A DNA stretch of 64,000 nt from Candidatus Omnitrophota bacterium (lineage in GTDB: Bacteria > Omnitrophota > Omnitrophia > Omnitrophales > JACROU01). The position numbers and the translations under genes were made by a program. Below are positions 5,375-53,199 of this stretch, one piece after another. The notes under the pieces are model-generated. The model did no database searches, was not told the DNA's origin, and saw only the letters and a program-made list of their open reading frames with translations. The first letter of the stretch is position 1. Each line of letters begins with the position of its first letter. The stretch is taken from positions 4,765-68,764 of the forward strand of contig JAJDCD010000004.1 in the NCBI GenBank assembly GCA_029261035.1. The letters run 5' to 3'.

Positions 5375-5383
5375 AAAAAGGAA

Positions 5384-9783: not shown

Positions 9784-11124
9784 TTATGAAACAAGCTCTC
9801 CAAAAACACGATCTTTTCTATTCTCTTTAACTTCAACCCAAGCAAATTCCCCAACATTCACATCTTCAGCATTAAACTCCACCAAAATATAATTAGGGGT
9901 TCTCCCACGATAGAAAACCTCACCTGTCTCTTTCCGATCCACTTTTTCTTCTACCAAAACGTGAAGCCTTGTGTTTATTGTTCCATCCAAATATTCGGAT
10001 TGCCACCCTCTTCCTTCAGCCTGTAAAAACTTGATGCGTCTATCTGCTTCTGAATGTTCAATCGTATCTTCCATGCGAGCTGCTCGAGTTCCCTCTCGAG
10101 GGCTGTACGGAAAGGCATGAATTTTTAATGGCTTTAATTCATTTAAAAGCTCTATCGTATTTTGAAATTGCTCTTGCGTCTCCCCAGGGAAACCCGTCAT
10201 AACATCACAGGTCAAAGCAAAGAAATCAACTTTACGATTAATTTTATGGACCAATTCCTTATAAAATTTAGGGCCATAACGTCGATTCATATTTTTCAAG
10301 ACTTCTGCGTCTCCGCTCTGTAAAGCTATGTGCAAATGCGGGCAAAATTTAGGACTTTCTGCCATCAACTGAATGAGCTCATCTGAAACATCCGTAGGCT
10401 CAATAGAGGAAAGTCTTAGTCTTTCTAAACCAGAAACCTCTAACAACCTTCGACACAAAGAAGCCAACGATTCCGAATCACCCAAACCATCTCCATAAGC
10501 CCCCAACTGAATCCCCGCTAATACAACTTCTTTAAAACCTGCTCTAACTAAAGTCTCAGCCTCCTCAACCACTTCATCAAATCTTCGACTCCGTGCACGA
10601 CCTCGAACTATCACCACTTTACAAAAAGCACAAGCGTGATTACATCCATCCTGAATTTTAACAAAGGCACGTGCTCGCCCTTCAAAAGAAGATACGGACA
10701 AATCAGAATAACGATCCCTTCCATGCATCTTATCTTCCTCTTGACCTCGACATTGAGAAAACTCCGAGTTCTCAATATCAAAATGCAGCAACGCTTTCTC
10801 AACAATCAAATCTTTTTCATTTTGTCTTAAAACTTCAGTAACACCTTCAATTTCTAAAATTTCTTCCACATTTCTCTCAGCATAACACCCTGTCACAATA
10901 ATCTTAGTCTCAGGATTCACACGATGCATTTTTCGAATTAAGTATCTACTCTTACGATCACTTTCAGCTGTCACCGTACAGGTATTTAAAACAAATAGAT
11001 CGGCTTCGTCTAAATTTTTAGTCTCCACAAAACCGGACTTAAAGAGTTTTTCTCTCATAGCCTGCGTTTCATATTGATTCACTCTACAACCCAACGTTTG
11101 AAATTTTACTTTTTTAAGCTTCAT
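9784..11124 (-). CDS. MiaB/RimO/MtaB-family radical-SAM tRNA methylthiotransferase
   Basis: N-terminal MTTase domain (KFQTLGCRVNQYETQAM), radical SAM CxxxCxxC (DGCNHACAFC), C-terminal TRAM-like region; start at MKLKKVKF avoids overlap with rsmE. Confidence 0.8.
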   Translation of the reverse strand: MKLKKVKFQTLGCRVNQYETQAMREKLFKSGFVETKNLDEADLFVLNTCTVTAESDRKSRYLIRKMHRVNPETKIIVTGCYAERNVEEILEIEGVTEVLRQNEKDLIVEKALLHFDIENSEFSQCRGQEEDKMHGRDRYSDLSVSSFEGRARAFVKIQDGCNHACAFCKVVIVRGRARSRRFDEVVEEAETLVRAGFKEVVLAGIQLGAYGDGLGDSESLASLCRRLLEVSGLERLRLSSIEPTDVSDELIQLMAESPKFCPHLHIALQSGDAEVLKNMNRRYGPKFYKELVHKINRKVDFFALTCDVMTGFPGETQEQFQNTIELLNELKPLKIHAFPYSPREGTRAARMEDTIEHSEADRRIKFLQAEGRGWQSEYLDGTINTRLHVLVEEKVDRKETGEVFYRGRTPNYILVEFNAEDVNVGEFAWVEVKENRKDRVFGELVS

Positions 11125-19477: not shown

Positions 19478-21210
<1,733 letters not shown>

Positions 21211-21215
21211 AATCA

Positions 21216-21503
21216 CTATTCAAAAACTGCTAAGATTTCATTTTCTTTTAAAATTTTATGCTTTGTTCCTTCAATAACGATTTCATCTCCGGAATATTTT
21301 CCAAAAATAACTTTATCACCTGCTTTAACTTCAAGAGGTTGAAAGCTTCCGCTTTCCAAAGATTTTCCAGGACCTACAGCAACAACTTTACCTTCCGTCT
21401 TTTCTTCTTTAGCTGTATCTGGAAGAATAATTCCACCTTTGGTTTTTTCTTCAGCTTTTAAAACTTCAACTAATACTTTATCGCCTAATGGTTTTACTTT
21501 CAT
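21216..21503 (-). CDS. groES: co-chaperonin GroES
   Basis: [44 protein letters not shown] canonical Cpn10; start at MKVKPL. Confidence 0.9.
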   Translation of the reverse strand: [95 protein letters not shown]

Positions 21504-21535
21504 TTTTCTTTCTCCTTTGTCTATCTGAGTTATAA

Positions 21536-21632
21536 GTTGGTCCGTGACAGTCACTGAAGTGACAGTCACCACGAAACTAATCTTTGTTATCAAATTTAAA
21601 AGTGACTGTCACCTTGGTGACTGTCACTTTTA
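21536..21632. repeat. GTGACAGTCAC x2 - spacer - GTGACTGTCAC x2 palindrome array between groEL and groES
   Basis: gtgacagtcac at 21545 and 21560; gtgactgtcac at 21603 and 21618; two halves are reverse complements, so it can form a long hairpin. Confidence 0.75.
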
Positions 21633-21666
21633 AGTACCTAAAAGCCAAAAAGATGCTTAGCACTTT

Positions 21667-23343
<1,677 letters not shown>

Positions 23344-23641: not shown

Positions 23642-26600
23642 CTACGCTGCTTGAGCCGTTCTGATATACCCTTGGAATTCGGTCCAGAGAGATTGCATCA
23701 ATTGGACGAATTGATCATTGAAGGTAAATACATTGTTCGCTGCACCCCTTTTAAGGGCAATTTTGATATCTGCTGCCAACTTGTCATAACCTCCTGCTAC
23801 AGCTAGTTTTGCAGCAACAGAACCAGCAAATAACTGATAGGTTGTCCACTGAGAATCTGACAATCGACTTCGGTCTACCGAAATTAACTGAGTTCCATTC
23901 AGAAATGCCGCATCTTCCAAATTACTTTTCTCAGCTAATACCACAAGATGTTTTCCGATATTTTGAGAAGAAACTTCAAGGTCAATGGATGATTTTAATG
24001 CATCCACCAATCGAGATAACTTCAAAGACTTTCCAGAAACATCTTTAAACTCACTGTTTTGTGTAATTAGTTTAATCGTACTCTTAACAGAATCATCAAC
24101 AACATGAACCAAAACAAGTCTTTGTCCAAGAGCCTGCTTATCTTTATCGGAAAACTTTAACTGATTAAGAGCATCACCAAAAGCCTCGACATTAGCTTCA
24201 GGAGAATCTAAAACCACGACTGCAATATTACCCTCATTCGAAAGCAAACTTGTTACAACTTCTTGAGGAGATGTCACCGAAGCCTGTCTTACGGTTACAC
24301 CCAACTGAGGTTGTGAGGTTCCAAAAAGAGAAGCAAAAAGACTGTCTTTATTATCCCCCAGATAACCTTCCAAACCTCTAAGCGCTTTTATAACTTCATT
24401 CTCTAAACCAAAAATCTGTTTATACATATACTCAAATTGCTTATCACTCAACTCAGGTCGTATCAGTTTACCAGCTGCATGCGTTGTTGCTTCAACAACC
24501 CCCTCCAATGTTAACCCATATGGATATTCAACAACAGCACCCAGTTTATTATTTAAAATACTAAGAATACTTTCTTCAACCCCCAAACTCTCTGCGGAAA
24601 TAACAGACTCATCTTTTTCATCAACTGGCTTAGTTCCTTCTAATAAATACCAAGGTGTTCTCGCAACTTTTTCAATAAATTCAATCAGTTCACTACGACT
24701 CATTGTTTTAGGTAAATTAAAAGAAATTAACTTATCCCCCATAACAACAGATGGTTCAAAATTTTCCCCCATTAATGGTTTAAAAGCTCCTCTGCTTAAT
24801 GTATCCACAATTCTTAACCCCAGTTTATTTGAAGTTGGAGCTATAAGAAATACAGAGCTTACGATGTCTTTCCCCTTACCATCAGAGGAATAACCAACAA
24901 AAAAATGAAGCCCTTGTTCTTTAGCAGCACCATTAACATCAGATCCAAACAATTTAAAAAAATCAGGAAATAAACCGTCCTCATAATAAGACAGCCCATA
25001 AGAATACAAATCAGTATCAAATAGATTCACTTTCTCAACGGAAACAACGCCCAAACTAGACGCTTCAACAAACTTCGTCTTAGCCAATTCTTCTGCTGGG
25101 ATTACAAAAGGAATTCCTTTTTTAGCAGCAGCTGTAGCTGCGATACGAATTGGACGTTCGGTTTGATACTGAATATCTTCATCAGAAATTATGCGGCCAT
25201 TTACGTTCTCTACTTCTTGTGTCATCATTTCACTCGTTACCTCAGCAACATCTTGAATAGAAAGAAAGGATATTCTTCGCTCTGTCTGTAAAATTTCGCT
25301 TAATTCCATTAAATTCGATATCGATTGAATATCCAGCCCAAGCTTAACATCGCTCAGACCAGCTTCATCCAGTAATTCAATAACTTTATCAATGTCTGAA
25401 TAGATTCGAACTAATTTTAATGCTATAGAAAATTCGACGTCTGAAAACTCCTCAGACAATTGTTTAATAATGCTAAGTTGAATTTTAAAAAATTCAAGAT
25501 CTCTATTTAAACTTTTAACAATACCCTTAACACCAAAATCAGGATTCGCTTCAAAAGGCTCATAACGCAAACCACCAATCAAACCTCTCATCCCGCCTGT
25601 TTTAAGTGTGTTTCCTTCCTCATCTTCTCCCACTTCTGTGCTGGTAGGCGCATCATCTGTCCCAATAACCAAAGATAAATTTCTTGATCTAGCATCGGTA
25701 AAAGCCTTATGTAGTGCTGATCTCATTACATTTTTATAATGCAGCATCCCTTCTTCAAGGCTAAGCCCTAACGAAGTTAAAACTCCACCTGCACTTGCAG
25801 TAAGAACAAGCTTTTCAACGTCATCCATCGCATCGTCACGTTTAACAACTAGAGCTTGTTTTTTTACTGTCATCTCAGCTAAAGTCCTTTTCTCTTCATT
25901 AATCTGCTCTTCTATTTGATCAACAGACTCACTGCGAGATACTGCTTCTTTTCTTTTTATTAATGTTGATAACTCTTCTCTTAATACGTTAATCCTTCTA
26001 TCAAGTGAATCAATTTCAATGACTAATGTATCTAATTCCTCATCTAAGGTCTCTCTAGATTTCTCTACATTCAACTTATCTTGAGATAAATCTCTAAGTA
26101 ACCATGGATGCACTTTCATATCATTTAAAAGAATATCTCCTATGTCCATTCTTAGAGAAGCATCAACTGTAGGTTGAGCCTCTGAGTCAATATTAAAAGT
26201 AAAACCAGCCGCATCTTCAAATAACGCATACTTTTCTTGTGTTGAAGCACCACCTAAATCACTTATATTCTCAGCCGCTAAATTCTTAGCCACTTTTTCA
26301 AATGCCTCAATCACTACCGAAACTGAAGAATAACCTAATGCCGCCAAACCTTTTCCATATTCTTCCTGCCCTGGAACAGAAGGATCATTACCACAGTAGC
26401 CACACTTCACTATACTTGAAAGAATCAAATATGCTTTATCTCGATCACCTTCTTTTAAAGCTGCCTTCGCCTCTTTAATTGCACTTTCATTAAAAATCTT
26501 TGCTTGCCCCGTCACCATCGCATTCCAACGAATAACTGCAGGACCATAAGCGGTTGCATTATTTTTTAACGAAGGATCTCCTGTGTTACGATCAATTCGG

Positions 26601-29600
26601 TAAATCGTTTGCAATGCATCATTACCACCCGTTGAAGTAAAAAAGCGAATCGGAATTCCTGCATCTCTAAAAGACTGCACTACTGCTAAAAAGTCATTAA
26701 TATTAATAGCGTTAGTTGGGATCTCGGTCATCATTCCAATCTGAACCAAATTCGCTAATTCCACATTGGATATCCCTAAATTTTCACCTACCTTAAGAAA
26801 ACGTTCGATCATTTGTTTTAAATCTGAAGGACGACGCACAATAGGAGCAAAGATACCGATTTTGTGCCTCTTGAGCATCGCAACACGAATCATTGCTTCA
26901 AGTTGCCATTCCATCGTTGGCGAATCTAAAAGAAGCTCTAAACCACGATACCCTTTCATCGCATTCAGTTCTTCTTTTACAAATAATTCGGATCCCTTAA
27001 CAGCTTTGTATTCATCCGATTTTCTATCATCCAATCGAATTTTTAAATGCTTGTCTAAAAGACCTATAATTTCTTCAATTAATACCCTGACATTTGGATC
27101 ATCTTGTGCTTCTTTTAAAATTTTCAACGATGTTAATAGAGGATCCGAGCTGTGCCCTAACCCTACTTCATACATCTGTTCTACAATGTCTTTAACTGCC
27201 AATCTTAACTGTTTATCTTGAATCTGCTGATAGCGATAAGCGACCTCAACAAAATCAGGATTTAAAGGTTCAGCAGTAGCCAGAATACCCTGGGTAATAA
27301 TCGATTGATAAAAATGTTGCCCCGAGTTATATCCGGCAATCTGTTCTTCAATAAACTGAATTAGTTTTACATTTTCTTTGCGGTTTAAAATATATTTAGA
27401 AGCCACACCTTCCTCTAGCTCTCCCTTTTCTTGGGCCACCATATTGTCATAAGCAAGTAATGCATCCGTATAAATACCAATATTTGCTAAATCAATCTCA
27501 AGTCGTTTCAACCCAACACCTTCATAACTAGGAATATTACGGGTCGCATAACTAGCCAAAGATTTTTCAGGAGAAGCCACAATAGATGCCGACCGAGTTG
27601 AACCATAAGGCGTATTTGGAATATCTCGAACAGAAAAGTCATTCCCTGCAATCTTAACTTTATGATCATAACCCAACAAAATCTTACCGCGCTCAGCATC
27701 AACGGTGATTTGCATACCCTCTTTCAACACAGTCATCAACTGATCCGAAGTTCCTGTAACCGCCACTAAACCATACTCAGAAGCAACAATCATCGTATGA
27801 GAATTTTGCCCTCCAAGGATCGCAATAACACCTTTAGCCTCTAGCATCGCACGATTCATATCGGGATCGGACTGAAAAGTCGCTAAAATTTTACCCTTAG
27901 CTTTAGCTAGCTCTGCAGGGTCTGTTTTATCCAACACCCAAGCAACTTCACCTTGAGCCGTTCCACCCGTTTTCGCAATAAAAGTAAAATCAAGAACATT
28001 ACCTTCTAATTCAGCTTTTTTAAAAGCCTGATCTGTGACAACCACTCTTTTTAATTTAATTACATCCGGGTCTTGTAAACTAATAACTGTTTCGGGACGC
28101 GCTTGAGTACTAACCACATTCCAATCATATCGATCAAACCCCCGCTCGTCTTTTAAAATTTCTCCGTCTTCTCCAACTAATTTAATTGAAGTTCCTTTAG
28201 ATTCTTCTTTGGGTCTAAAAGCCCCTTCTAAGTCAACATAACCTTGTCCATAAAAACGGTCAATTTCACTTAAGAGTTCGGCATACTGTCCTAATAGTCT
28301 TTGATCTGTAACAGAGAACTCTCTTTTTTCTTCTTCTGTCAGAGGAAGCTCTACTTTCCCCATTCGATCTTCTGTTTCTACAATCTTATACCTTCTTTCT
28401 CCTTTTTGTCTGATGATCACAGCCTGTCCGTCAAGAGATAAGATAAACTTACTTCCACTTTCGTCTCCAGACACAATTTTTTCTCCCTGACCTTCATGAA
28501 TATTTGAAGAAATGGATGGGTAACCCGTTTGTTTATCCGCAGTCATAGCAACAAAGGATAGCTTACTTAAAAACATTCTTTGAAACAATGTACTAATTTC
28601 AACAGAATCATCAAAAGTAGGCAATCCTTCTAAGAATCGATAATCAATCGCTCGATTATTAAAAAGAGATGCTTGGTTAAAAACCCACTCGGTAATGAAA
28701 TTATCAACACCGGTCTCATCCATCCTCACAACACCATTCGCATTTACTTTTTGAACCCACTCTGGAGATGTTGCTGTCACAAAAATAGATGTGTCTTGCA
28801 TTCCTGCAAAAGAAGCCTCTTCTGAATCTTCCCCTACAGCAGAAGATCGAATTGCTAGAACGAGCTTGTCTAAAGAAATTTTTAAGCGCTCAGCAAGAAT
28901 CATAAGATTTTTCTTAATTTCTTCTTCTACTTTGGGAGGAACGACAAGGTTACGAGCAGTGTAAAGAAATTTATTTGAATTTCTTTGTGTTAAGTCATGG
29001 CGTTGCTCCGAATACTCTTTTGCTTCTTCTTCCAAACGTTGAATCGTTTTCTGTGACGCTTCAATCTCAGACTGCTTTCTCGCAATTTTTAGATTATTGC
29101 CGACTATCTTAATGCTATTAACCAGAATAACCGACTCTATAAACGCTTGGTTGAACACAAAAGTATTTGTAGCTTCATCATGGTCCACCAATTCGTCTTC
29201 CGTTTCACCCCATTTAATTTGGAATAATTGCTTATCTGTGCGATTTTTAAAAAAGTCTCTAATATTTTCATACAAGGTATTATCATCTCGATAAGCCCTT
29301 AACAAATCAATAGCAAGAGGAACAACGGTTTGAACATCTTCCAAAAATAGTTCAGGACGATGATTAATATAATTTAGTATCTCTATATCTTTCTTCAACT
29401 CCGAAATCCGACTTTTAACAATAGAAACTTCGGTTTCATTACTTTTTATCTTTTCTTTAATCTCGACAACACGTTGATCTAGAGACTTTCCTAGAAAAGC
29501 AAAGTAATCCGTAATCCCATCAATCTTATGTCCCTTAGCAGGATAATAATCTTGAATATCTAAAATGACTTCCGATAGAACCCCAATCACTTCTTGAATC

Positions 29601-32600
29601 ATCTTAGATAAAGGCTGTTTTTTCTTCTTGTCATCTAATTTTCTAAAAGTAACCCTCAACGCCTGAAGCTCTTCTCTTAAAATAATAGCTTCTTCATCCC
29701 CATTTTCAACCTTATCCAAAAATTGTTCTACAGAAAGACGTGTAAATTTCTTATATTTTTTCAATAAGTTTTGAAGCTGTGTAATATTTTGAATCAAGCT
29801 ATCAGAAATCACATCTGTCGTATTGTGCTCTAATAATTGCTTAAAACCTTGAGAGCCTGTAGCAAAATTTGCCAAAGTCACTGCTCTAGGGGTATACATC
29901 AATTCCCCTGTATGTGCCGTCTTACCACCAAAATTCACCTCATCTTGACGCTCAACTTCAACGTCCCATACAATAATGCGATCTTTAAATGCAGGATCAG
30001 CAACATATTCTGTTTTAAAACTATAACGCGCTGTCGTTGTCGTCTTATCTTCTATATCTTGAAGGCTTACTTCTGTCGTATCCGCTAATTTTTTCCTCAA
30101 GTCTTCCACATCTTCTTTTGTAATCACTTCTCTACGATCTATTTTATCTTCGTGTTGATTATGAAATGCATCAAGCAACACTTCTAACTCTTCAACATTA
30201 AAATCCCTCGTTGCATAAAACCCGTATTCATTTCGAAGCATTTGGTATAAACGAGGAGCATCTAAAATACGTCCTCGATGCATAAAATCAGAGATAATCA
30301 ATAAAATATCATTTTGATTTAAGAAATACCTATCCGAGACTTCTTTTGTATCATTCAACTTCACATTTTCTTTAATATCAAATATTTCTTTTGTATCTCT
30401 AAGTCGTGTTGAATGTTGACGTGTCAAACTCTGTTGCCCGCCTATTAATAAAATCCCTAAAACTTTTCTTTCCCCAGCACCCAACTCTTCACCTTGCTCA
30501 ATATGCCCAGCAATCATTGCTAACCATGACATAGCTATTTTCTTACGCCCTGTTTCTAACAAAAAGTCTACAAACTGCTGGTTTAATAATAAGGTTTTAG
30601 TTTCAAAATCAAAGTCATAGTACATATCTTCAGTTTTTCCTACAGCAACTGTAACTCCTTCTAAAACATCCCCGTATTTCCTAATATCTTTATATTCTTC
30701 TTTACTACCCCCATAAAGTCTAAAAAAGTTTACAGCTAAAGGTATCAGTTTTTGATGCTTATCAAATGCTACTCGCCCTTCTCGAATATCTTCAAAAGAT
30801 AGAACTTGCATATCTTTCGATGGTTCAGAAATAACCATAGCTGCTTTATATCTAAATTCTTTTGCTATTTCTTCTTCTGTTTTATGTCCATCTCTCAATT
30901 GTTCTGCCCACCAACTTAAATCTCCAGTAGTCATAACTCCCGATTGACCTACAACTCGATAACCCGTTTCTGCAGCCAAAGTTCGTATGGTTAACCTAAA
31001 CTGAAATTCCTTTATTAACTCATCTTCTGTTAATGCTTGAGTAGCCCACCATGCCAAATCACCATCCGATGCATGAGCAGAAAAAGGGTTTTCTGTAATT
31101 AAATCATATTCATCTGCAAGCGCTCGTATGGTTTCAAGATCTGTAACCTTTTCTCCCAAACTGCTAGCCCTACGTTCATAATTCTGCCCATTCCAATATA
31201 ATTTTATTTCTCTTGTTCTTTTATCCGCTTGTTTTGTAAATTCAAATTTCAAAACAACATCTCCAGCTTCTTTTTCTAACGTTAAGATGATAGACTCTAT
31301 ATATATTCCCGTCCCAATAGATGTATTAGTTCCTATCACTCCTCCTCCAGGCGCTGGAAATATGTCTTTTAATTTTCCATGCAACATATTTACTAACAAG
31401 CTTACATCCCCTATAATTACCGGAACTTCCCCTTTTTCTAGACTCGCTAAACCCTCTCTTACTTTATTAATTACTTCTTCCTTTTCTCCCAAACTGGATC
31501 CTACTTGCTTCTTAGCATCTATCGCTTGTTGAGCACGATGTGCAGCATACGCTTTAGCAAACTCAGTAATCTCTTCTTGATTAAAAAGAAATCGATACTG
31601 TTTTCTCTCAATCCATTGATAAATGTTAAATGCTTCATTTGGAATAAAACCATCTTTAGGTCTAAACCATCGTGAAAAACTAAATTTATGATTTTTAATT
31701 CTTCTTTTTTGATCTTCAAGAGAAGCCTTCACATCAAGATATTGAACATTCTTAATGTCAACTTCTACAAAATGATTGTCTCTCAATAATTGAGGAGTCA
31801 TCAGAGTAATATACCCAATTCCATGTCGGACTGGATCATACATATCTAACGCAACCAATTCATTTATAACTTTGCTCGATTTTGCTTCGAGAAATGTTTG
31901 AGCTTGTAATAATCGATCCGCTTGAGGATCCCTAATACGAGCTGAGGTCACAGCTTGAGTCCCATCATAAGCAGCTGCAAGAATACGAACCAATTTTTCT
32001 AAATAAGGGCTGTCTTTCAAACGTTCCACTAAGCTTTCCGGAGCTCCCGGTATAGAAGAAAGACTAATCTCAGCTTTTCGCTTTTCAGCTTGTATTTGAA
32101 TTAACTGATTAATTAAATCTTTTTCATCAAGTCCCCTACTAGCAAGTTCTTCAAAATCAGATTCTTTAAGAGGTTCAGAAAATAAATTTTTATCCGTTAA
32201 ATAAAATCGTTCCGCTAAATACTGTACTGTTTTGGGGTTTTCAATTACCCCAAGGCTTGAAGCTTCCGAAGACGCATCTTCACCTTCCAAAGCGGCTAAA
32301 AGACTTTGCCGTTCACCTGGCTCTTCAGTAAAAATCTCGATATAACCTTTAATTTCAGCCCATTCTGTACTTGTAAATAAAAGTCTATTTGTTTCCAAAG
32401 ATGGTAAAGCATCCATCTCCACCTTTTCACCTATACGAAACAAAGGAACACCTCCAACTGCACCGGAGTAAGCAACAGCTCCATCTACTTCCATTGGTTC
32501 TTTAGGGGATAATAATGCTATTGGGTAGTCCTCTTTAGCAATACCTGCTTCTTCATAAACTGGAAGTTTTTTTATTTCTGATTTAAATTCTTTTTCTTTA

Positions 32601-35600
32601 CCTGAAAGATATTTCAAAATCAAAGCAACTTGATCTGTTAAACCATTATTTGTATCACCAAACTTTTCTACTTTATTTTCTAAATAAATTAAAGCCAATC
32701 TAAGAACAACCTCAAGCAAAATAGGTTTGTTTTTCAACCGTTTATTGAAAGCACTTAATCCTGTTATACCGGTAAGCCCTCCGGTTAATTCTAAAATACC
32801 TAAGCTAGAAGCTTCCGTTTTATATTTTTCAGGATTATCTTTAATATCAAAAGCCAAAGAAAGAACGGTTTGATCCTCTGTTGAAATAAGTACTCGATAA
32901 CCTTGCTGTTGAAATCGATCCAGAGTTCCTTGCGCCCCGCCTTTCCATTCATATTGAGCAGAAGCACGGTTTAAAACATCCGCATAAATGGAAGCACTTC
33001 CATTCTGACTCACATAAACAAGCTGAAGGTCACCTTCTCCATTAGTTTTAGGGTGAATCAAGAATAGGCCACCTTTTCCCAACACAGATTTAAGTGCAGA
33101 AGGGTCAAATAGAGGTAATGATTCTATTTCAGATTTTAAAGCTTCTTTCTTTTCTATAACTACTGTTCTAAGAGCTTCTAAATAACCCTTAATTTTATCT
33201 GAGTCAGCAATGTTATGATTATTTACAGTATAAGGACCACTCATATACGCTAACTGAGTTATAACTTCAGACAAAACAGGCTTTTCAACAAGTCTTCCTT
33301 TTAAATTTTGCAACGTTTGAATCGCTGAACTTCCACGGCGACGAACTAAGTAAGAATCTGTATCATCCGGTATAGACAAATCTAAATATGGGATAAAGAG
33401 TGCCTTTTTTTCTTGCTTTCCAGCTTCTTCAATTTGTTTATTTCTTGAAAATATTTCCCCAAACCCCTCTAACAACAGATTGATATTTGCTCGAGAATCA
33501 TCCAGACGAATAAATAACCCAGCGCCACCTTGATCTTTTCTAAGCTCTGCCAAAGCCTTATAGGAAGCCTCAGCAAATGCATCTCGAACTAAATGCGAAG
33601 GTAATCCATGAAGATAAGACTTTGCAAAACCAATGGCTGGATTTGCTTCTAATGGCTGTTTAGGAACAAAAGAAATAATAATAGGAAAATACTTCTGAGG
33701 CTGAGACAATACTTGTTGATAACTAATATGTTGATCTCCTGTACCCTGCATCACCCATTCCATTCCCATGTTAATTAAAGCATCCCTTAAAGAATAAAAA
33801 CGATCTCCTTCTAAATAAATAAAAGGAATTATTTTCCTTCCGTCTTTCTCTGTAAAAATTTTAGCTTGCGATAACAAAAGAGATAAGGCGGTATCATCAA
33901 AAATTCGCTGAACTCTTCGCTCGTATCCAGGAACACCCCCTAAAAGCTCTCTTATCACTGCTTTTTTAGAAACCTCATCATATCGTCTCTTCACAGCACC
34001 CGGATTCCCTCTCTCTTCTTCTTGCAAAGCTTCTAACTCTGTCTTCAAGATTCCTTTTCCTAATTCCACAAAAGGTTGTCTTAAATATAAATTTTCTTGC
34101 AAAATTCTAGTGATCGGATTATCTAAGTCGCTCACATCTACAAAATTGGGATCCAATCCCTGAGAACGAATATCCCGAGCTATTAATCGAGTTCCTGCGG
34201 TATAAGTCATCCCATAGAACGTCGTAAACCATTCCCCTAATTTTTCAGCCGTATATTGACGTATTAAACGTAATTTTCTTTCTGGAACTAGTGAAGATTG
34301 ATTCACCGCCTGAAGTAATGAGTGATTTTCAAAAGGTTCTGAAGGAATTTGAAACACATTATAATCTGCGCTCGAAACTTCAAAATTACCTAAAGTAACT
34401 ACCAATCTCTTATCATCTTGAAAATAATTCTTCTTCTGGGCACCCCAGTCACTTTGTCTCACTGCAACCAAGTTTGCAAATCCAGCCTGCCAAATACTTT
34501 CATTAAAATTTTGTTCGATTGCTTTCCCAAACCAAAAAGCTTCATCTGGGACAACAAGAGCTATATCTTTATACCCACCATCCAAAACATGATGTGCCAA
34601 ACGATTTCCAATGTGAGTTCCGCCTCTAACCTTTTCAATACCTGCTTTTCTAACTTCCCAATAACGCTTCGAATCCAAATCATAGTAAGAGAGAAATGTC
34701 ATCATATGGAGGTCTGCTGTCCAACGGCCACCTACATTATTAAACATAGCTCCAAAACCAGGTGCATTTTCACCCAACTCCTCTTTCAATCCAGAATTCC
34801 GAATAAATGCCGATAGACGACTTTTTTCAGGGGTATCTACGGTCTCAAAAAACATATTTCCCAGAACTGTTCCTAACACATCTTTGATGTTTTCTTGAGA
34901 GATCTCCAAACCTTTATCTTTTGCTTTCAAAGCTAATAACTCCACAAAACTACTTGTTAAAAACCAATCTTTATTAATTGTAAATAATTTTTTTTGCTCC
35001 ACACCTTCTTTGTTTACATTAATTTCATTAAGTGTATTAAAAACTAAGTTAGAAAAAGAAACACCATCCAACGCTTTCTTCTCAGCCACCTTTTTTAACA
35101 ACACTTTAAAAATAGACTCAAACACCATCATCGTTTCATCCGTAGAACCTGATTTAGAACTAGGAATCAAAGCAACCTCCTCCCAATCCGCACCTAACTG
35201 AGCCAATTGACTTTCGATAGAAACTTCAAAGTTTTTTCCTAATTCGTATTCACCAACAATAATGGATTCTTTTTCAGAAGGATCTTTAAGCTGTCCAAAC
35301 ATCGTGGCTATACCTTCAAACGGCGTATGTTGTCCACCAATGCCTGTTTTTATAATTAAACGAATTTTCTTATCTGGATCAACAGCACTCAGTTTCTTAT
35401 TTCTATTAGCAAAAAATTCTCGCATCATCTTAACTACACCGAGGAAAATTTCTTTTCCACCATTCACATAGTATCCTTCATTCCCCTCGTCACCCATTGC
35501 GTGGGACCCATCATTCACAGCACCTTCTGGCACACCATAGCCCTCTTGTTCATAGCCGCCCTGTGTGAAACGTTTCTTCAGGCCAGAATCTCCTCCTGCG

Positions 35601-44100: not shown

Positions 44101-45807
44101 TACGCCTGAAGAAATAACAGGAAAAACAGAATCCCCTACCGTATTAAAAGTATTATGAACACCCAACGCGATACTTTCTAAATGAAATTGAAGCAATGAT
44201 GTTGGGTCATCTAAATAAGTTCCAGCACTCACTCTTGCACGGTCTACTGTATCCCGAGCCAAAGGTTTTAGAGAGTCAAACTTTTGTTTGGTCATTAATT
44301 CTCTGTACTGATTAGGATTAAACTGAGAAACATTTGGAGAAACAATCACATAAGACCAATCACTAGCTCTAAGTAAAGAGCTAATTCCTTCACTATGAAA
44401 ACCTCCAGCAACCAAAGCCATTTGCTTGATTTGTTTATCAGAAGTATGCTGTTTTAGATTACTAACAAAAGATTCATCACGAGAACGAGCCAATAAATAA
44501 AATTCCATAACATCATTTAGCAAAAGATTCATTTTGAATTCTTGATCTTCATTCAATTGCACCAATCCTTCAAACAATGAAATTAATGTAGTTTCTTTTA
44601 AAACGCGTGAAAGCTCTTCTAAATCTTTTCGAGTTAGCTCTAACTTAAAAGCATTTTCAATCAACTGAATCATTTCAGACTGAACAAAAACCTTCTTTGC
44701 TTTTTCAGCAATAAGTAACTTTTGATAAATATGATTTTCAATAGAATCAAGCTCTTCAAATAACTGTGTCCCCACCAACTCTTCTTTCAAGATCAAAGAA
44801 GAAGAAAACTGAGTTAACTGTGGATAAGACTTCCAATCGATGGAAAGACCTTCTGTAGCAAGGTACAACTTATCAAAATAATGACGTGCTCCTAAAGGAA
44901 ACTGAGATTCACCTAAATTATTGAGAATAAATTCTTTCTCAGGAGAGTCTAGCAACTTTTCTGACAATACAACTTTCAATGCTTCTACTTCTGCTTTTAA
45001 CTTCTTCATATTCACATTCTTACCAGAGTCTTGAAGTTTCAAAATACGCACTAAATGAGGAAAGCGTGCTTGAGCATCAGATTTACTTAGATCCATACTC
45101 AACATTCTTTTAGTCAGCTTAGAAACCGTGTTGATATAAGCAATCGTTTGATCTGAAGTATTAAATGCTGCCTCTTTTTGTTTTTCTAACTCTCTTAACT
45201 TTACATCATAATAGGTTTTTTTTAATTCTTTGATTCTTGCTTTAACAGGCTCTAATAGGGGAAGGTAAAGAGCTGCTTTTTTACTAATATCTCTATAAGC
45301 TTTAATGTTCTTTTGATATAACTTCCTGTCATCCACACCAACAACATTGGTTTGACCCTGAGTCTGATAAGCAAACCATTCTGTTCCAGACAACTCACCT
45401 TTATCTACTAGCTGCTGCAACACTTGTTTATTAATTTCAGGCAAAGGAAGAAAGTTTAAATTAATAGGATCAATCGGTGTATCTGCTGCCTCAACACCCA
45501 CATGATTGATTTTATGTTGATCAAGAAGATGATTTAAAATCGAAGAGATGTTCTTTTGCGCACTTGGATTTGTATGTGCGTCCTGAATAAATACTAGAGT
45601 AGGTTTTGCTTGATCCCCTACATGAACGTCTTCAATCACCCCGAATTTTTCTGGAATCGATATATCTAAAATTTTTGATTGCTGGTTTGCAACTTGCTGT
45701 AGCACATTCACAGATGGATTTGCATAAACGGAATTTGATAATGTAAATACGGCGATGAGCGCCCAAACTATAGACTTGAACTCCACAGATGTTTTACCTA
45801 ATGACAT
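38107..45807 (-). CDS. giant secreted multidomain protein 2 (2566 aa), paralog of giant 1: signal peptide, shared N-domain, embedded complete GAPDH-like domain, shared C-domain
   Basis: 7.7-kb ORF. Signal peptide SIVWALIAVFTLSNSVYA. GAPDH hallmarks: YYGITGGRGRIGKGILRLL (NAD-binding GxGRIGR), ISCASCTTNG (catalytic Cys motif), ITEHGYTLSQ (His, cf. VHAYT), SSIFDPSGTSVTV...WYDNEMGYTHRVIDV (C-terminal GAPDH signature). N-terminal LVFIQDAH...NHVGVEAAD...GGFHSEG and C-terminal LFATSKPQLGVTVRQSS...NNVFTFSDQFMQLM are homologous to giant 1. Confidence 0.8.
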   Translation of the reverse strand: MSLGKTSVEFKSIVWALIAVFTLSNSVYANPSVNVLQQVANQQSKILDISIPEKFGVIEDVHVGDQAKPTLVFIQDAHTNPSAQKNISSILNHLLDQHKINHVGVEAADTPIDPINLNFLPLPEINKQVLQQLVDKGELSGTEWFAYQTQGQTNVVGVDDRKLYQKNIKAYRDISKKAALYLPLLEPVKARIKELKKTYYDVKLRELEKQKEAAFNTSDQTIAYINTVSKLTKRMLSMDLSKSDAQARFPHLVRILKLQDSGKNVNMKKLKAEVEALKVVLSEKLLDSPEKEFILNNLGESQFPLGARHYFDKLYLATEGLSIDWKSYPQLTQFSSSLILKEELVGTQLFEELDSIENHIYQKLLIAEKAKKVFVQSEMIQLIENAFKLELTRKDLEELSRVLKETTLISLFEGLVQLNEDQEFKMNLLLNDVMEFYLLARSRDESFVSNLKQHTSDKQIKQMALVAGGFHSEGISSLLRASDWSYVIVSPNVSQFNPNQYRELMTKQKFDSLKPLARDTVDRARVSAGTYLDDPTSLLQFHLESIALGVHNTFNTVGDSVFPVISSGVNSRLKLNANLAAFDRIELEAARSHSSRVSESVFRVSGNGASRLVSIILETSPVTGEANVLYSGVASANSLGVAVAREQVLDQPIQLAINVGAPDYYQDLSQIQLVTQLSEPQVEEFRSVASNFPKNTNVNPYTLYNRDLISMLWALIGDPNISLNEIFGVANPQSLFNLVVSNTVFGRLPGKLLLIEEEGVFYLSINDKRIKLNPELPHNDNVDGYDTLIDMSDSRNSGESEENLLKRLEDLRSKSSLSSVISYNPLSDLKTKRPIIYGQNSEVLLREDEVHFVPSLGTQVAGNVLALLQRSDLNEDISAYTGLSVKTPAELMDRELQTLRAGMGTALSLEFPEWAGYNKTNDGELVQASLNSMNFAAPFKGASIVDFTIQLKADSELLKLNPEERKKKIIAALQAGLKRTGSENFVRLQKEGEPLESLMLSDHRELAIIGIEDMIVGGEGQVLIPVWSNELGRVQTFMNMLVNDRSNYPIETTSQDNVPSNSIPVVDSSDTKYMPAQLPEGERIYYGITGGRGRIGKGILRLLYKDPNYYPAFLNGVSDVIALVQQMQADIVHKAYPWVAEAVKEGPGKDFLVLKDKQTDEVVYKIPIFNIRLARSGNKEDAAAKFIRDMVTMLRGLKGPNEEAINIEVLFDAVGEDDGFNRPLHHSLAIAGVQRIIKTYPAKKDGIKNIVFGINHVEDIREEIERAHMAKEEYQRIIPTSAYGAIPEEVPLVVETISCASCTTNGVGPGLSRLNGYLLDEGFPSMFDAVFITEHGYTLSQSSLGSASRVPKKGPSLVNDPTMLGAISTTGASKAYVKADPLFKGKFEGASRRLANPDGSAVWTSLRIGINNINDVPTVEQVNAQAYSWANSDALRGIFGYDEIQNTSQLHNRSESSIFDPSGTSVTVSPDKDYVVIQIKEWYDNEMGYTHRVIDVEKYAALLSRGLIEDDTDYGPSVVSAVKLPGQPYLHTYNGDAEAIIKDQVVGKETIIASPNVTYIPLINLLKKQPPAFFTSEQKKYLKRMVDEFLVPVLQRARDLKQGFPSLYHKGRSFKSLQVTGIKDVMSFTSTEGHQYFMLPQYIADEGFLNINIPFSFVEKVVTTDDHHAYYQLILMGIFQEVMGLSYPEALVAAKHYNKEATQGVSDLPDMTRAMLDLMREQAKSDDEARDYLNGAMKDNVGFVFGETVRNSLVKRRAAPEYMNTIRNELTVMAHLINGYIAGPVVNGKGIPATPQELVSVLNADNLVSQNEIPTEVLSKASLSRDLVAAASMVPVVQRFRGVSLQKPLDDHLLTGLLDSTTTDQIKGLLGSRDLSVLPIATGGSVKDQSKLDPGHMIGSGKDDIARIIVNPLDKKRALLRSGEVDEPGAISSFIVFDEPEDSVNAPRAFPMLYGNAFFGSFKKGVSSEMKQRILEQLAENPIDPDADPIETIKFWAGVNGVVYNPTSNQPGQLSNVTVHVLDSVGDRQHETARINALEEFKQESGIEIDKIQHGTLEPALEAVWGNSDDRIHIFLSTSGIAEILTAMTLAGRESSYGSFRVMSRAGLENAQSIEPQFAYNFSRQESSKIGSFQRELAGEILPKRSKSPSTPKKIFDTIHNFNGNFEATLVPVTANPALNLPGIREINNREFVVPLVRIVRTSQTELHRWVEYFNVKVDSREGYSWTPIAAPQSEAGVEANSLGGAKINRVQQILLGEQSILDALASGDVSNLPGDYFLTPEQMIAAGNAFASSVYAEDSADALLAELNRVSENDVDSTDVLIRYLKDNPAGLLSSLFATSKPQLGVTVRQSSITSASEVVTGALANEGSLTVLVLDQLNQDLSRFTSEVAALDLPEEEKQSISDRIVFVEPREFSVEGIQDAIESILTSKFTDILGRKVTLTKLVNNLSQTLNVSAPSKGLNQHLVVLAEKELLPDADRLKGKQLISVERKALSDVQWDSYKLFAGALAGKLAVVGGFDKLPTDVRGALKKVRGNNVFTFSDQFMQLMSGLWNEFQGYQRIRESA

Positions 45808-46238: not shown

Positions 46239-46718
46239 TTACTCGCGAAAATCCGGATCAATTTTGCGTATTTTAGCCAAAACGCGGTTTAATTCCTGAG
46301 CTACTTCAGAGAAAAAATCTCCTGTTCTCAGCTTAATATCATTTTTAGGGGTGTGCCCATCCGCTGTTCTTTTAAGAACCGACTGGATACGAAAAATAGG
46401 TCCAACCACTTTTCGCAAGAAGAAAATACTAGACCAAGCCGCTATAAGTACTGTAACTAAAACAACTAAGAAGATTCGAATCAAGATCTCCTGCTCTACA
46501 ATATTAAGCACTTCCATAATACTCACCTTAGAAGTACGAGCCAATTCCTGAGCCAGAATATCTGCAACCGTATGATGCACAACAATACTTAATGCAAACC
46601 CTGTAAAAATAGTAACAATAATCATCCATATAAAATACTGTCTCTGAATAGGTTTATAAAGACGGAGATGCTCGAGGGATTTTCTTTTATTGAGTTGTTT
46701 TTTAAAGTCATATTTCAT
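46239..46718 (-). CDS. membrane protein with HAMP-like linker domain (hypothetical)
   Basis: 159 aa; two TM helices separated by a short loop, then LRKVVGPIFRIQSVLKRTADGH...GDFFSEVAQELNRVLAKI resembling a HAMP helix pair; no output domain. Confidence 0.5.
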   Translation of the reverse strand: MKYDFKKQLNKRKSLEHLRLYKPIQRQYFIWMIIVTIFTGFALSIVVHHTVADILAQELARTSKVSIMEVLNIVEQEILIRIFLVVLVTVLIAAWSSIFFLRKVVGPIFRIQSVLKRTADGHTPKNDIKLRTGDFFSEVAQELNRVLAKIRKIDPDFRE

Positions 46719-52884: not shown

Positions 52885-53199
52885 TTATTTAGATTTTCTG
52901 AAATATGTAACTACGTCAAGGATGAATCCAAGAAAAAAACCGCTAATGCTATAAATCAAAATTGTAACTATACAGCTAACCCAAAAAAACATGCGTGGGG
53001 AAAGAAACTCATAAAAGCCCATCAACTTTGACAATTCAAACCCCAAAGACCAATGCACATATGTAAATGGAAAAGCAAAAATTAGATACGGTGCTGCAGA
53101 ATGAGGACTATAGACAGAAATCAATTGATGTATAATGAAAAAAAACAAAACAAACAGTGTAAAAACAATAGTCGATAAAAATGAAAGTTTGAACTTCAC
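52885..53199 (-). CDS. small polytopic membrane protein directly downstream of giant 3 (candidate immunity/accessory protein)
   Basis: 104 aa, ~3 TM helices; GTG start overlaps the giant-3 stop codon (translational coupling geometry); hydrophobic aromatic-rich composition. Confidence 0.4.
   Translation of the reverse strand: MKFKLSFLSTIVFTLFVLFFFIIHQLISVYSPHSAAPYLIFAFPFTYVHWSLGFELSKLMGFYEFLSPRMFFWVSCIVTILIYSISGFFLGFILDVVTYFRKSK

Follow-up and report, generated by a model that had tools for sequence, protein, structure and literature searches.

Two adjacent genes in a 64,000-nucleotide stretch of DNA from a Candidatus Omnitrophota bacterium (the window) each encode a very long protein that begins like an exported one and carries enzymes of central metabolism in its middle. 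The question raised by this locus is what such a protein is for, and whether it acts as one chain or as several. The answer that we favor, and that to our minds comes close to an even chance, is that the two giants are polyproteins cut at short punctuation marks into separate enzymes. The architecture, the fold assignments, the excess of marks and their fit to module borders are observed; that the chain is cut, by which protease and in which compartment, is what we infer. The features on which this reading draws are collected in Table 1.

Table 1. Features of the two giant genes, g1 and g2. Positions are those of the window; aa, residues of the encoded protein.
Feature	Positions	Strand	Residues and description	Basis
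g2 (giant 2)	38107..45807	(-)	2566 aa; upstream of g1	ORF list, translation, Pfam
g2 signal-peptide-like N-terminus	45721..45807	(-)	aa 1-29, MSLGKTSVEFKSIVWALIAVFTLSNSVYA, followed by NP	sequence; AF2 helix 8-26, then low-confidence linker
g2 head domain	44284..45660	(-)	aa ~50-508; predicted Tiki/TraB/ChaN/EreA-fold hydrolase domain with ~270-aa helical insert	
g2 mark 1	43888..43902	(-)	aa 636-640 ANSLG, in S-A-N-S-L-G; 170 aa past GGFH	
g2 GAPDH-like unit	41308..42552	(-)	aa 1086-1500; GxGRIG NAD motif, SCTTN catalytic Cys, His, WYDNE	
g2 mark 2	39076..39090	(-)	aa 2240-2244 ANSLG; directly ahead of C-terminal module	
g2 C-terminal module	38110..39075	(-)	aa 2245-2566, end ...EFQGYQRIRESA	homologous to P0045 tail, E 1.1e-5
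g2-g1 intergenic spacer	37778..38106	(-)	two GC-rich hairpins past g2 stop codon; AAGGAG ribosome-binding site ahead of g1	
g1 (giant 1)	23642..37777	(-)	4711 aa; downstream of g2	ORF list, translation, Pfam
g1 head domain	36098..37615	(-)	aa ~55-560; paralog of g2 head; IQDAH, HVGLESAD, RD, GGFHTEG present	BLASTP E 3e-55; alignment
g1 mark 1	35666..35680	(-)	aa 700-704 ASSLG; 198 aa past GGFH; PGI-fold module begins 4-6 residues on	
g1 PGI-fold module	33443..35665	(-)	aa 705-1445; SKSGSTDET, GGRWT, NES, GDQHIS	AF2, Foldseek, alignment
g1 mark 2	32798..32812	(-)	aa 1656-1660 ASSLG	
g1 mark 3	32249..32263	(-)	aa 1839-1843 ASSLG	
g1 mark 4	31487..31501	(-)	aa 2093-2097 GSSLG	
g1 mark 5	31154..31168	(-)	aa 2204-2208 ASSLG	
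g1 PEP-synthase-like unit	26276..29044	(-)	aa 2912-3834; PPDK_N, mobile His domain, PEP-binding domain	
g1 mark 6	25049..25063	(-)	aa 4239-4243 ASSLG	
g1 mark 7	24581..24595	(-)	aa 4395-4399 AESLG; directly ahead of C-terminal module	
g1 C-terminal module	23645..24580	(-)	aa 4400-4711, end ...EFQGYIRTAQAA	BLASTP, MAFFT

The two reading frames are exactly as an earlier note on this DNA had given them, adjacent on one strand with products of 4711 and 2566 residues; both are on the minus strand, and they run unbroken over 14.1 and 7.7 kb in a genome of 37% GC, where chance stop codons are frequent. The hairpins and the ribosome-binding site in the spacer mark g1 and g2 as separate genes, and the real start of g1 may be Met4 on account of its better spacing from AAGGAG. 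They are surrounded by core housekeeping genes, with an even GC content and no compositional anomaly, and every named best match of the window's RpoD is to Candidatus Omnitrophica/Omnitrophota, at 60-82% identity. That an assembly chimera or a frame error joined separate enzyme genes here is extremely improbable. Both proteins are singletons in a collection of 15 billion proteins and come from a single NCBI contig, and no close orthologs were found with the tail alignment (a homolog search returned nothing, not even the query protein, and scans of genome and metagenome contigs were empty). However, the frames are intact, hundreds of independent assemblies show the same architecture, the marks are in frame with copies that differ by synonymous codons, and g1 and g2 are paralogous in both head and tail. 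We therefore reject this explanation.

Each giant consists of a signal peptide, as judged from its sequence, then a Tiki-like head, a middle part and a C-terminal module. The middle of g2 is a single segment of 1604 residues with the GAPDH-like unit, and that of g1 comprises six inter-mark segments that include the PGI-fold and PEP-synthase-like units. The proposal that the two are paralogs with a common head and tail around different enzymes of one pathway is supported by pairwise comparison, and the similarity at both ends is statistically sound. In BLASTP of g1 against g2, the heads align over residues 4-587 and 1-533 at 29% identity (E 3e-55) and the tails over 242 residues at 48% identity (E 5e-62); the MAFFT alignment extends the latter similarity over the entire last 312 and 322 residues. 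Both N-termini have a positively charged n-region, a hydrophobic stretch of 11-17 residues and an AxA-like site, so that the signal peptides claimed for both giants hold up on inspection, and on that footing the proteins may be secreted. This is the sole hydrophobic stretch of its kind, and no membrane helix follows the head in either protein.

The AF2 model of the g2 head (pLDDT ~90 over the core) has the characteristic alpha/beta fold of the Tiki/TraB/ChaN/EreA superfamily. Across an alignment of 20 sequences, D76, H78, Q84, E106, R443 and G468-G469-x-H471 (g2 numbering) are invariant, and we take H78, E106, R443 and G468-G469-F-H471 to be the His, Glu, Arg(Asn) and Gly-x-x-His motifs of the superfamily, matched by motif rather than by superposition. 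Because this His/Glu/Arg/His constellation is kept, the head is probably an active metal-dependent hydrolase. Not all members of the superfamily are peptidases, since esterases and a haem-binding protein belong to it too, and peptidase activity is only a candidate role for the head. Relative to other members of the Tiki/TraB/PrgY/GumN/ChaN/erythromycin-esterase superfamily, the heads described here differ by the helical insert of ~270 residues and by the kilobases of cargo fused to them, and they have D-x-H where G-T-x-H is usual. The Pfam ChaN/Tiki model (Cofac_haem_bdg) matches five of 20 family members, at best with 2.3e-6, and g2 at only E 0.49. The g1 and g2 heads stay below the cut-off of every Pfam model, and a profile search of the PDB with the head found nothing.

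These heads make g1 and g2 members of a large modular family of giant proteins, of which, as such, we found no description. We define the family by a signal-peptide-like stretch followed by a head with IQDxH...Q...E...RD...GGFH, and g1 and g2 have both. The head is all that 37 homologs of 1.4-4.4 kaa have in common; g1 and g2 align with them over ~500 residues (E down to 1e-42), and nearly all begin with a signal-peptide-like N-terminus. A single peptide pattern retrieved 219 confirmed head loci from GTDB species representatives, belonging to Omnitrophota, Elusimicrobiota and Auribacterota and frequently present three or four to a genome, with proteins from 526 residues (head only) to more than 3900. 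The cargo of the family is mostly cytoplasm-type enzymes or signalling domains in protein-sized modules. In 39 of 103 relatives, a TM-like segment stands right after the head.

The earlier note had described the enzyme units as seemingly complete, and here the evidence differs from unit to unit. The PEP-synthase-like module of g1 has all three Pfam domains in order (PPDK_N 6e-30, PEP-utilizers 7.8e-13, PEP-utilizers_C 1.9e-19), an NCBIfam match at 2.3e-70 and a PDB match to 2ols at 1.6e-33 that aligns the phospho-carrier His (GGQNSHTMIVA against GGRTCHAAIIA), but its scores fall far below the equivalog cut-offs (237.6 bits versus 598 for NF005057, 213 versus 740 for TIGR01418). Residues ~2600-2677 weakly match the N-terminus of PEP synthase, which suggests that this unit begins earlier in the chain, with a long insert. 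The GAPDH-like domain of g2 is matched by TIGR01534 (GAPDH-I, 1.6e-29; 103 bits versus an equivalog cut-off of 367) and by PDB 1hdg (1.5e-23), the latter with the Cys of SCTTN, the His and WYDNE aligned (ISCASCTTN; ITEHGYT against TTVHSYT; GGRGRIGK against NGFGRIGR). In Pfam, however, Gp_dh_C (1.1e-5) barely exceeds its gathering score and Gp_dh_N stays below it.

The PGI-like SIS unit claimed for g1 is not significant by sequence: Pfam PGI gives E 0.013 (14.6 bits versus 22) and NCBIfam 1.3e-4 (21 bits versus 487), a PDB profile search was empty, and no PGIs occur among 98 phmmer matches. Its double-SIS PGI fold is nevertheless confirmed at the level of the predicted structure (AF2, pLDDT 87, pTM 0.90), for which the best 40 Foldseek matches in the PDB are all glucose-6-phosphate isomerases (prob 1.00, E ~1e-8). 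This module of ~715 residues forms its own clade (89 matches below 1e-10, 40-57% identity) with large inserts, and nearly all of its members lie inside giants; free-standing PGI-fold proteins without a signal peptide also exist. SKSGSTDET, GGRWT, N-E-S and G-D-Q-H-I-S are invariant or nearly so across the module family and may correspond to the known motifs of PGI, by resemblance of the motifs rather than residue-level superposition. Set against canonical PGI, type I GAPDH and PEP synthase (PpsA), the three units match in fold or domain architecture and in catalytic residues, putatively so for those of the PGI-fold unit, but are highly divergent, with bit scores of 21/487, 103/367 and 238/598 relative to the equivalog cut-offs. 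The terms complete and intact are supported only as far as domain architecture and the catalytic residues that we checked, which are retained. Residues 1445-2208, 2209-2600 and 3900-4399 of g1, residues 641-1085 and 1501-2244 of g2 and both tails have no Pfam, NCBIfam or PDB matches, and for lack of any such match a guess that g2 1501-2244 is a class II FBPase is unsupported.

Pentapeptides of the A[S/N]SLG type recur between the modules, a feature that the earlier note had overlooked. These marks are not random. The seven in g1 compare with 0.17-0.20 expected and with a maximum of three in 5000 shuffles, and the 12,371 residues of other ORFs in the window contain none. Four relatives show the same excess of observed over expected marks (P0045, 9 versus 0.14; P0054, 9 versus 0.28; P0068, 18 versus 0.33; P0069, 18 versus 0.19). 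The peptide itself depends on lineage: A[S/N]SLG is found in the source organism and its closest relatives, and RSExR in many other Omnitrophota, where its density is 0.48 per kaa in family ORFs versus 0.048 in other ORFs at the same loci. Synonymous codons vary among the nine copies of g1 and g2, and likewise among 90 copies of RSExR, which argues for selection on the peptide and led us to reject a repeat or a recombination site at the level of DNA. We also reject a role of the marks as internal restart or Shine-Dalgarno signals, because RSE is encoded by CGN-TCN-GAR, not AGGAG, and the codons of ASSLG are not purine-rich. We do not count the SSLG at residue 1343 of g2, which is part of the catalytic domain of GAPDH and lines up with the sequence of ordinary GAPDHs. 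Since many family members have no recurrent mark, including L056, which is closest to g1 in the PEP-synthase unit, the punctuation is not universal.

The marks coincide with module borders. The PGI-fold module is flanked by ASSLG-type marks in P0045 (165/886) and P0054 (960/1682) and by RSExR marks in P0068 (1953/2702) and P0069 (260/980), and it begins right behind a mark in g1 and P0049. In P0068, the Pfam domains RidA, UDPGP, PGI-fold and PGM are each confined to one inter-mark segment. BLAST alignments end within 25 residues of a mark 93-110 times versus 9-37 expected, mostly through one module in five proteins; we prefer this restricted border test to a first test of HSPs that span marks (67 observed versus 1908 expected), which was misleading, being inflated by head-domain alignments. 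The first mark falls a median of 213 residues past GGFH, where the head region ends, and in g1, g2 and P0045 the last one stands directly ahead of the tail module. Segments between marks have a median length of 281 residues (IQR 111-538); two long ones in g1, of 956 and 2035 residues, hold more than one folded unit. The AF2 models have low confidence ahead of a mark (g2 509-600) and, behind one, an ordered helix from residue 2 (the g1 PGI-fold module). Directly behind internal marks there are also signal peptides, Tat-type in P0069 and P0016 and Sec-type in L031, two of which begin with Met, but signal- or TM-like sequence follows only 12 of 185 marks.

The tails do not share this breadth. A two-sequence HMM and hhalign show no similarity between tails of the ASSLG and RSExR lineages, which leaves a family-wide tail module unsupported; matches are confined to small groups, and the Ala-rich terminus is the sole part shared between lineages. 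Most family members close with -[A/S/Q]-Ala. The chain ends of g1 (...AQAA) and g2 (...RESA) both fit [A/S/Q/M]-Ala, and relatives that terminate in Ala number ~30 of 38, 19 of 35 and 14 of 33 in three sets.

We propose that a giant gene would be an operon fused at the protein level and translated as one chain, which a site-specific protease would cut at or beside each mark. Cleavage would release a sugar-phosphate isomerase of PGI fold, a dikinase resembling PEP synthase, a dehydrogenase resembling GAPDH and several further modules. Our candidate for the protease is the Tiki-like head, which could work in cis or in trans; because P0068 and P0069 have their marks but no such head, it cannot be an obligatory cis-protease. 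We lean toward a version in which the modules act in the producer's own cell and the head alone is exported. A functional signal peptide with no membrane helix after the g1 or g2 head counts against this version, since the entire chain could in principle be threaded out. NAD- and ATP-dependent enzymes make little sense outside the cytoplasm. The wider claim, that Omnitrophota and related phyla express some ordinary metabolic and signalling enzymes as fused, operon-like giants cut at A[S/N]SLG or RSExR by a site-specific protease, plausibly the Tiki-like head, is quite possible, but we hold it more tentatively.

Rather unlikely, in our judgment, is an exported effector polyprotein of the MARTX kind, a reading near that of the earlier note, in which the chain would leave by Sec export and be delivered to a host or prey cell or displayed toward it, the modules would be freed at the marks inside that target and would rewire its carbon metabolism, and the conserved head and tail would serve delivery and processing. 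The Sec-type signal peptide is conserved in nearly all members, and no further TM segment follows in g1, g2 or 32 of the 103 relatives. The giants parallel MARTX toxins (PMC5218395, PMC6315884) in a layout of conserved ends, variable cargo and marks between modules, the head resembles the toxin/effector domains RRSP, HopBA1 and PMT, the window contains a giant of RHS/Tc type at a distance of 7 kb, and Omnitrophota are presumed host-dependent or predatory, with giant ORFs tied to attacking other cells (PMC10066038). However, Pfam finds no RTX repeats, cysteine protease domain or other known delivery module, and the cargo of the family is ordinary intracellular enzymes and signalling domains, not toxins. 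Further points against export of the cargo are the signal-less free-standing PGI-fold proteins, the internal Tat- and Sec-type signals behind marks, the TM segment after the head in a third of relatives, which would leave the head on one side of the membrane and the cargo on the other, and the housekeeping setting of normal composition. The same four observations are better fitted by a role in the producer's own cell, and they are hints that processing takes place in its cytoplasm.

If the chain is instead never cut, it could be a multi-enzyme scaffold, an N-terminally membrane-tethered metabolon in which the pentapeptides would be hinges or partner docking sites; this we consider unlikely. 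Enzymes of one pathway do occur together (PGI, GAPDH and PEPS; PGM, UDPGP and PGI-fold in P0068), as substrate channelling predicts, but PGI, GAPDH and PEPS are not consecutive steps and would gain little from it. The surroundings of the marks are linker-like, polar or Pro-rich, as hinges would be, the lack of recurrent marks in many members is in keeping with a scaffold, and most Omnitrophota giants are read as membrane-anchored in a 2026 preprint (10.64898/2026.06.07.730766). A flexible linker, however, needs no strict pentapeptide, nor a wholesale switch of peptide between lineages with the positions kept. The four tandem 21-residue units of P0010, each with a mark at its end, would be odd for a hinge, and signal peptides that start with Met behind a mark are sensible only as free N-termini.

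Giant multi-enzyme proteins of Omnitrophota have been described before, in preprints of 2023 and 2026, and the claim that this is not a known architecture therefore falls. West-Roberts et al. (2023; 10.1101/2023.11.21.568195) report giants termed ‘Archaeovorins’, of more than 30,000 residues with many metabolic-enzyme domains; they give the cleavage points as unknown and ask whether the giants act as one chain or as cut products. The 2026 preprint has a ‘multi-enzyme metabolic cluster’ class, with counts given at 10 kaa or above. As far as full-text searches show, neither preprint treats the head, the marks or the ending of the tail: the text of the former makes no mention of TraB, Tiki or erythromycin-esterase, and that of the latter none of ‘motif’, ‘linker’ or ‘processing’. 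Like g1 and g2, the giants of both preprints are very long ORFs of the same phylum that tile domains of metabolic enzymes unrelated to one another, among them sugar-phosphate enzymes and others of the pyruvate phosphate dikinase type, with frequent N-terminal signal peptides and suspected post-translational cleavage. They are far larger and mostly have many TM helices, whereas g1 and g2, at 4.7 and 2.6 kaa, have none beyond the signal peptide. The proteases proposed for them are C39 and S8 domains, in contrast to the Tiki-like head that is our candidate.

MARTX toxins lack an N-terminal signal peptide and exit by type I secretion, and to our knowledge conserved short pentapeptide marks are not a feature of theirs. 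They are like the giants in size (3.5-5.2 kaa), in their conserved N- and C-terminal regions around variable enzyme modules and in a built-in protease that acts between modules (PMC5218395, PMC2900308), and one of their effectors, RRSP, shares the Tiki-like fold of the head (PMC6254334). Unlike them, g1 and g2 match no Pfam model of RTX or haemolysin type at E<0.01 and have no InsP6-activated cysteine protease domain (Peptidase_C80; Pfam), and the cargo is housekeeping-type enzymes, not toxins. Viral polyproteins are long translation products in which protein-sized units are parted by a short consensus for the protease of the lineage. The giants differ in being cellular and chromosomal, among housekeeping genes and with central-metabolism cargo, and in that their cleavage is a proposal.

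Among the traits of Omnitrophota and neighboring phyla, giant genes are striking and still in need of an explanation, and the recognizable head, the marks that bracket modules and the manageable sizes of 2.6-4.7 kaa open the question of cut or uncut to simple experiments. If the polyprotein reading is right, it would describe a mode of expressing housekeeping-type enzymes in bacteria that is the cellular counterpart of viral polyproteins, and the marks would supply the missing cleavage map for the giants of these phyla and let them be split computationally for annotation and structure prediction. Should cleavage prove false, the marks would remain a new conserved inter-domain element in want of an explanation. 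Glucose-6-phosphate isomerase is called in 67 of 176 complete Omnitrophota genomes, and on the polyprotein reading the 715-residue PGI-fold enzyme might explain some of the absent calls.

Giant 1 and giant 2, two giant proteins encoded side by side in the window, share both ends and differ in between. The earlier note had described them as a paralogous pair with common termini and different enzyme units, and the ORFs, the BLASTP blocks and the enzyme-unit searches bear this out. BLASTP between the two proteins is significant at both termini, with an N-terminal block of ~530-590 aa (29% identity, E 3e-55) and a C-terminal block formed by the last 242 aa (48% identity, E 5e-62); in a global alignment, the similarity of this C-terminal module, the tail, spans the last 312 and 322 aa of giant 1 and giant 2, respectively. 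By inspection, both N-termini are signal-peptide-like, with a charged n-region, a hydrophobic core and an AxA-like site, and neither protein has a membrane segment beyond this hydrophobic stretch. The 329-nt spacer holds two hairpins 3' of the giant 2 stop codon and an AAGGAG site 5' of giant 1, and the two are therefore separate genes. A terminator scan detected the first hairpin and missed the second; the pair may serve as terminators or form a regulatory element separating the giant genes.

Positions of the giant genes, nearby and related features, and module-border marks (nucleotides in the window unless a locus is named; aa, residues of the named protein)
Feature	Position	Strand	Description
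Giant 2 gene	38107..45807	-	2566 aa, uninterrupted ORF, upstream of giant 1
Giant 1 gene	23642..37777	-	4711 aa, uninterrupted ORF, downstream of giant 2
Hairpins after giant 2 stop codon	38030..38094	-	two, GC-rich: attcccgtgtagacgggaat and atccccgctttcgcggggat
groEL-groES-groEL	19478..23337	-	directly 3' of giant 1; unusual arrangement, two full-length Cpn60 paralogs (556 aa each) around cpn10
159-aa ORF	46239..46718	-	directly upstream of giant 2; no Pfam match at E<0.01
RNase P RNA	3644..4024	-	bacterial class A (287 bits), between rpsB and lptF/G
Third giant ORF	53199..63977	-	3592 aa
Marks in giant 1	aa 700, 1656, 1839, 2093, 2204, 4239, 4395		A/G-S/E-S-L-G, seven copies
Marks in giant 2	aa 636, 2240		ANSLG, two copies
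Marks around PGI-fold module, P0045	aa 165 and 886		ASSLG type
Marks around PGI-fold module, P0054	aa 960 and 1682		ASSLG type
Marks around PGI-fold module, P0068	aa 1953 and 2702		RSELR
Marks around PGI-fold module, P0069	aa 260 and 980		RSEVR
PGI-fold module, giant 1 and P0049			begins right after an ASSLG mark
Family pair at locus L045 (Omnitrophota MAG JAFGHI01)	2236..10978	opposite, head-to-head	first: 703 aa, head plus short tail ending ...NEFLQAA; second: 2089 aa, six RSELR marks

The remaining window encodes core housekeeping functions (rpsB-tsf-pyrH-frr, RNase P RNA, lptF/G, rpoD, dnaG, dnaE, guaA, guaB, groEL-groES-groEL, coaX, birA, alr, tsaB/E and thiL). GC content is even across the window (34-40%), and all named best matches of its RpoD are Candidatus Omnitrophica/Omnitrophota (60-82% identity). 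Both giant proteins are singletons, and they come from a single 222-kb NCBI contig. The third giant ORF is unrelated to them, having neither their N-terminal domain nor SLG marks. It resembles an RHS/Tc-type polymorphic toxin, as it matches RHS_repeat and TcdB_toxin_midN, contains repeats of the DINGDG type and shows three TM-like segments around aa 2821-2955. Since the GTG start is 23 nt away from the edge of the window, the full ORF may extend further.

Two of the three enzyme-like segments are significant by sequence. The PEP-synthase-like unit of giant 1 has PPDK_N, mobile His and PEP-binding domains in canonical order (Pfam) and matches PEP synthase models (NCBIfam, 2.3e-70) and solved PEP synthases (PDB, 1.6e-33), with the phospho-carrier His aligned. 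The GAPDH-like unit of giant 2 matches the type I GAPDH model (1.6e-29) and Thermotoga GAPDH (1.5e-23), the latter with the SCTTN cysteine, the histidine and the WYDNE motif all aligned. The PGI-like unit of giant 1, by contrast, stays below significance by sequence (Pfam E 0.013; NCBIfam 21 bits; no match in a PDB profile search) and is recovered by fold: in an AlphaFold model built from 13 homologs (pLDDT 87, pTM 0.90), the best 40 Foldseek PDB matches are all glucose-6-phosphate isomerases. SKSGSTDET, GGRWT, NES and GDQHIS are (nearly) invariant across its family, and we take them to resemble the phosphate-binding and catalytic motifs of PGI. All three units score far under curated equivalog cut-offs and are divergent paralogs, not standard housekeeping copies. 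Standard PGI models miss the divergent 715-aa enzyme of PGI fold, which may explain some of the missing isomerase calls in Omnitrophota, where 67 of 176 complete genomes have a glucose-6-phosphate isomerase call (10.64898/2026.06.07.730766).

The earlier note also held that this was not a known architecture, a claim that fails because the pair are small, TM-free relatives of multi-enzyme giants already described from Omnitrophota. West-Roberts et al. (2023; 10.1101/2023.11.21.568195) noted pyruvate phosphate dikinase domains in the 'Archaeovorins' and suspected cleavage by C39 or S8 peptidase domains, stating the cleavage points to be unknown. A 2026 preprint (10.64898/2026.06.07.730766) defined a 'multi-enzyme metabolic cluster' class and found a signal peptide or TM helices in 94% of long proteins, and Seymour et al. 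(2023; PMC10066038) linked giant ORFs to a host-dependent lifestyle. Giant 1 and giant 2 are thus less exotic than first thought, a variant of these recently recognised giants. The open full text of the 2023 preprint contains none of the terms TraB, Tiki or erythromycin-esterase, and that of the 2026 preprint none of 'motif', 'linker' or 'processing'. Proteins of the present type make the stated question of whether and where giants are cut directly testable.

A candidate answer lies in short recurring peptides between the modules, which we call marks. Shuffling predicts 0.17-0.20 copies in giant 1 (maximum 3), against 7 observed, and marks of the A[S/N]SLG type are absent from the 12,371 aa encoded elsewhere in the window. 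Because the copies in both giants use different synonymous codons, it is the peptide and not the DNA that is conserved. Many relatives carry another repeated peptide, R-[S/A]-E-x-R, in 5-18 copies per protein, and across family ORFs its density is ten times that in other ORFs at the same loci; its codons also vary, and they are not Shine-Dalgarno-like.

Both peptides mark module borders. The clearest case came from an exhaustive search with the segment after the first mark of giant 1, which returned 89 proteins below 1e-10, no canonical PGI among them; each has a ~715-aa module 40-57% identical to giant 1 residues 708-1440, at variable positions within giants of up to 7944 aa. P0050 (723 aa) and P0072 (738 aa) are scarcely longer than the module itself and lack a signal peptide, so that the module also exists free-standing. 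The two unrelated pentapeptides stand at equivalent positions around this one homologous module and are therefore interchangeable as border marks. Per protein, 93-110 alignment ends lie no more than 25 aa from a mark, where 9-37 would be expected; the PGI-fold module dominates this test. In P0068, each of four units (RidA, UDP-glucose pyrophosphorylase, PGI-fold and phosphoglucomutase) is confined to a single inter-mark segment, and such segments are generally protein-sized (median 281 aa, IQR 111-538). The first mark lies at the end of the head region, a median of 213 aa past GGFH, and the last directly ahead of the tail in giant 1, giant 2 and P0045. AF2 models show disorder ahead of the mark and an ordered helix immediately after it.

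The head, the shared N-terminal domain, defines the family. A search with giant 2 found 37 proteins (1.4-4.4 kaa) from Omnitrophota, Elusimicrobia and Endomicrobia MAGs that have only the N-terminal ~500 aa in common, with a signal-peptide-like stretch ahead in nearly all. Their middles differ widely, and most of the domains found there are of cytoplasmic type (GGDEF, REC, FHA, Ser/Thr kinases, ABC1, HATPase, methyltransferases, glycogen synthase and glycogen phosphorylase, nucleotidyl transferase, NUDIX, adenosine deaminase, PPDK_N plus PEP-utilizers, and Gp_dh_C). D76, H78, Q84, E106, G157, R443, G468, G469, H471, P491 and Y501 are invariant among 20 aligned heads, five of which match the Pfam ChaN (Tiki-superfamily) model. 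The fold resembles that of EreA-like Bcr135/136, EreC, ChaN and TraB, and also HopBA1, the Ras-specific endopeptidase RRSP and Pasteurella toxin. Counted among GTDB species representatives by one strict peptide pattern, VAGGFH[ST][EDQ]G, the family has 219 confirmed loci, spread over Omnitrophota, Elusimicrobiota and Auribacterota. A genome often carries three or four of them, and their lengths run from 526 aa (head only) to >3900 aa.

We infer, tentatively and at just short of an even chance, that the giants are polyproteins from which cleavage at the marks would release separate proteins. A polyprotein is the simplest reading because the enzyme modules are protein-sized and fold independently, a strictly conserved, lineage-specific peptide stands at each border, and the fold of the conserved head includes site-specific endopeptidases (TIKI, RRSP). 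Against it, many family members have no recurrent mark, among them L056, the closest relative of the giant 1 PEP-synthase unit (53% identity); P0068 and P0069 carry 18 marks each without a head, which makes the head at most a trans-acting protease; and the Tiki fold is found in esterases and a haem-binding protein as well. If the chain instead stayed intact as a metabolon scaffold, with the marks as conserved hinges, the mark data would be hard to reconcile: the strictly conserved pentapeptide switches between lineages, signal peptides are positioned behind marks, and in P0010 (Omnitrophica MAG, aa 2300-2363) the mark DRTEMR closes each of four 21-aa tandem units (...PVTDV..HKSFDSLDRTEMR), a stretch that would yield identical 21-mer peptides if marks are cut. 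We give such a scaffold slightly less credence than the exported effector considered below, which is itself unlikely. An assembly artefact is highly improbable, given how long the frames stay open at a genomic GC content of 37% and an architecture that recurs in hundreds of independent assemblies.

The interpretation in the earlier note is partly supported: the paralogy, the different enzyme cargo and the signal-peptide-like starts hold, the novelty of the architecture does not. The note further suggested exported effectors acting on host or neighbouring-cell carbon metabolism, or surface scaffolds. A MARTX-like effector polyprotein, in essence the former idea, has an analogous layout, and export agrees with a signal peptide conserved across the family and the lack of a later membrane segment in either giant; however, Pfam finds neither RTX repeats nor a cysteine protease domain in them, and the cargo is not toxin-like. 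We lean instead towards a polyprotein whose head would be exported and whose cargo would be released by cleavage into the producer's cytoplasm, because the enzyme units depend on NAD or ATP (with catalytic residues retained), the PGI-fold module also occurs without a signal peptide, and both giants lie among housekeeping genes. In addition, a TM-like segment directly follows the head in 39 of 103 relatives and would leave the membrane between head and cargo. Signal peptides of Tat or Sec type, two of them starting with Met, stand directly behind an internal mark in a few relatives (P0069, RSEAR followed by QGMSRRDFLRM...; P0016; L031, RSEVR followed by MGAKVRALIAAGMLL...), an arrangement that only makes sense as a free N-terminus made in the cytoplasm.

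The tails of giant 1 and giant 2 are homologous to those of P0045 and P0054 (E 1.1e-5; common ...EFQG[YF]...AA ending), with no detectable similarity to tails of the RSExR lineage. An [A/S/Q/M]-Ala ending occurs in about 30/38, 19/35 and 14/33 family members in three sets, and several RSExR proteins end in a mark copy followed by KAA; presumably this Ala-type end resembles C-terminal recognition tags. A subgroup of the giants from the PGI-fold module search (e.g., P0047, P0048 and P0073) ends in [E/V/K]-S-L, not x-A-A, pointing to another kind of conserved C-terminus.
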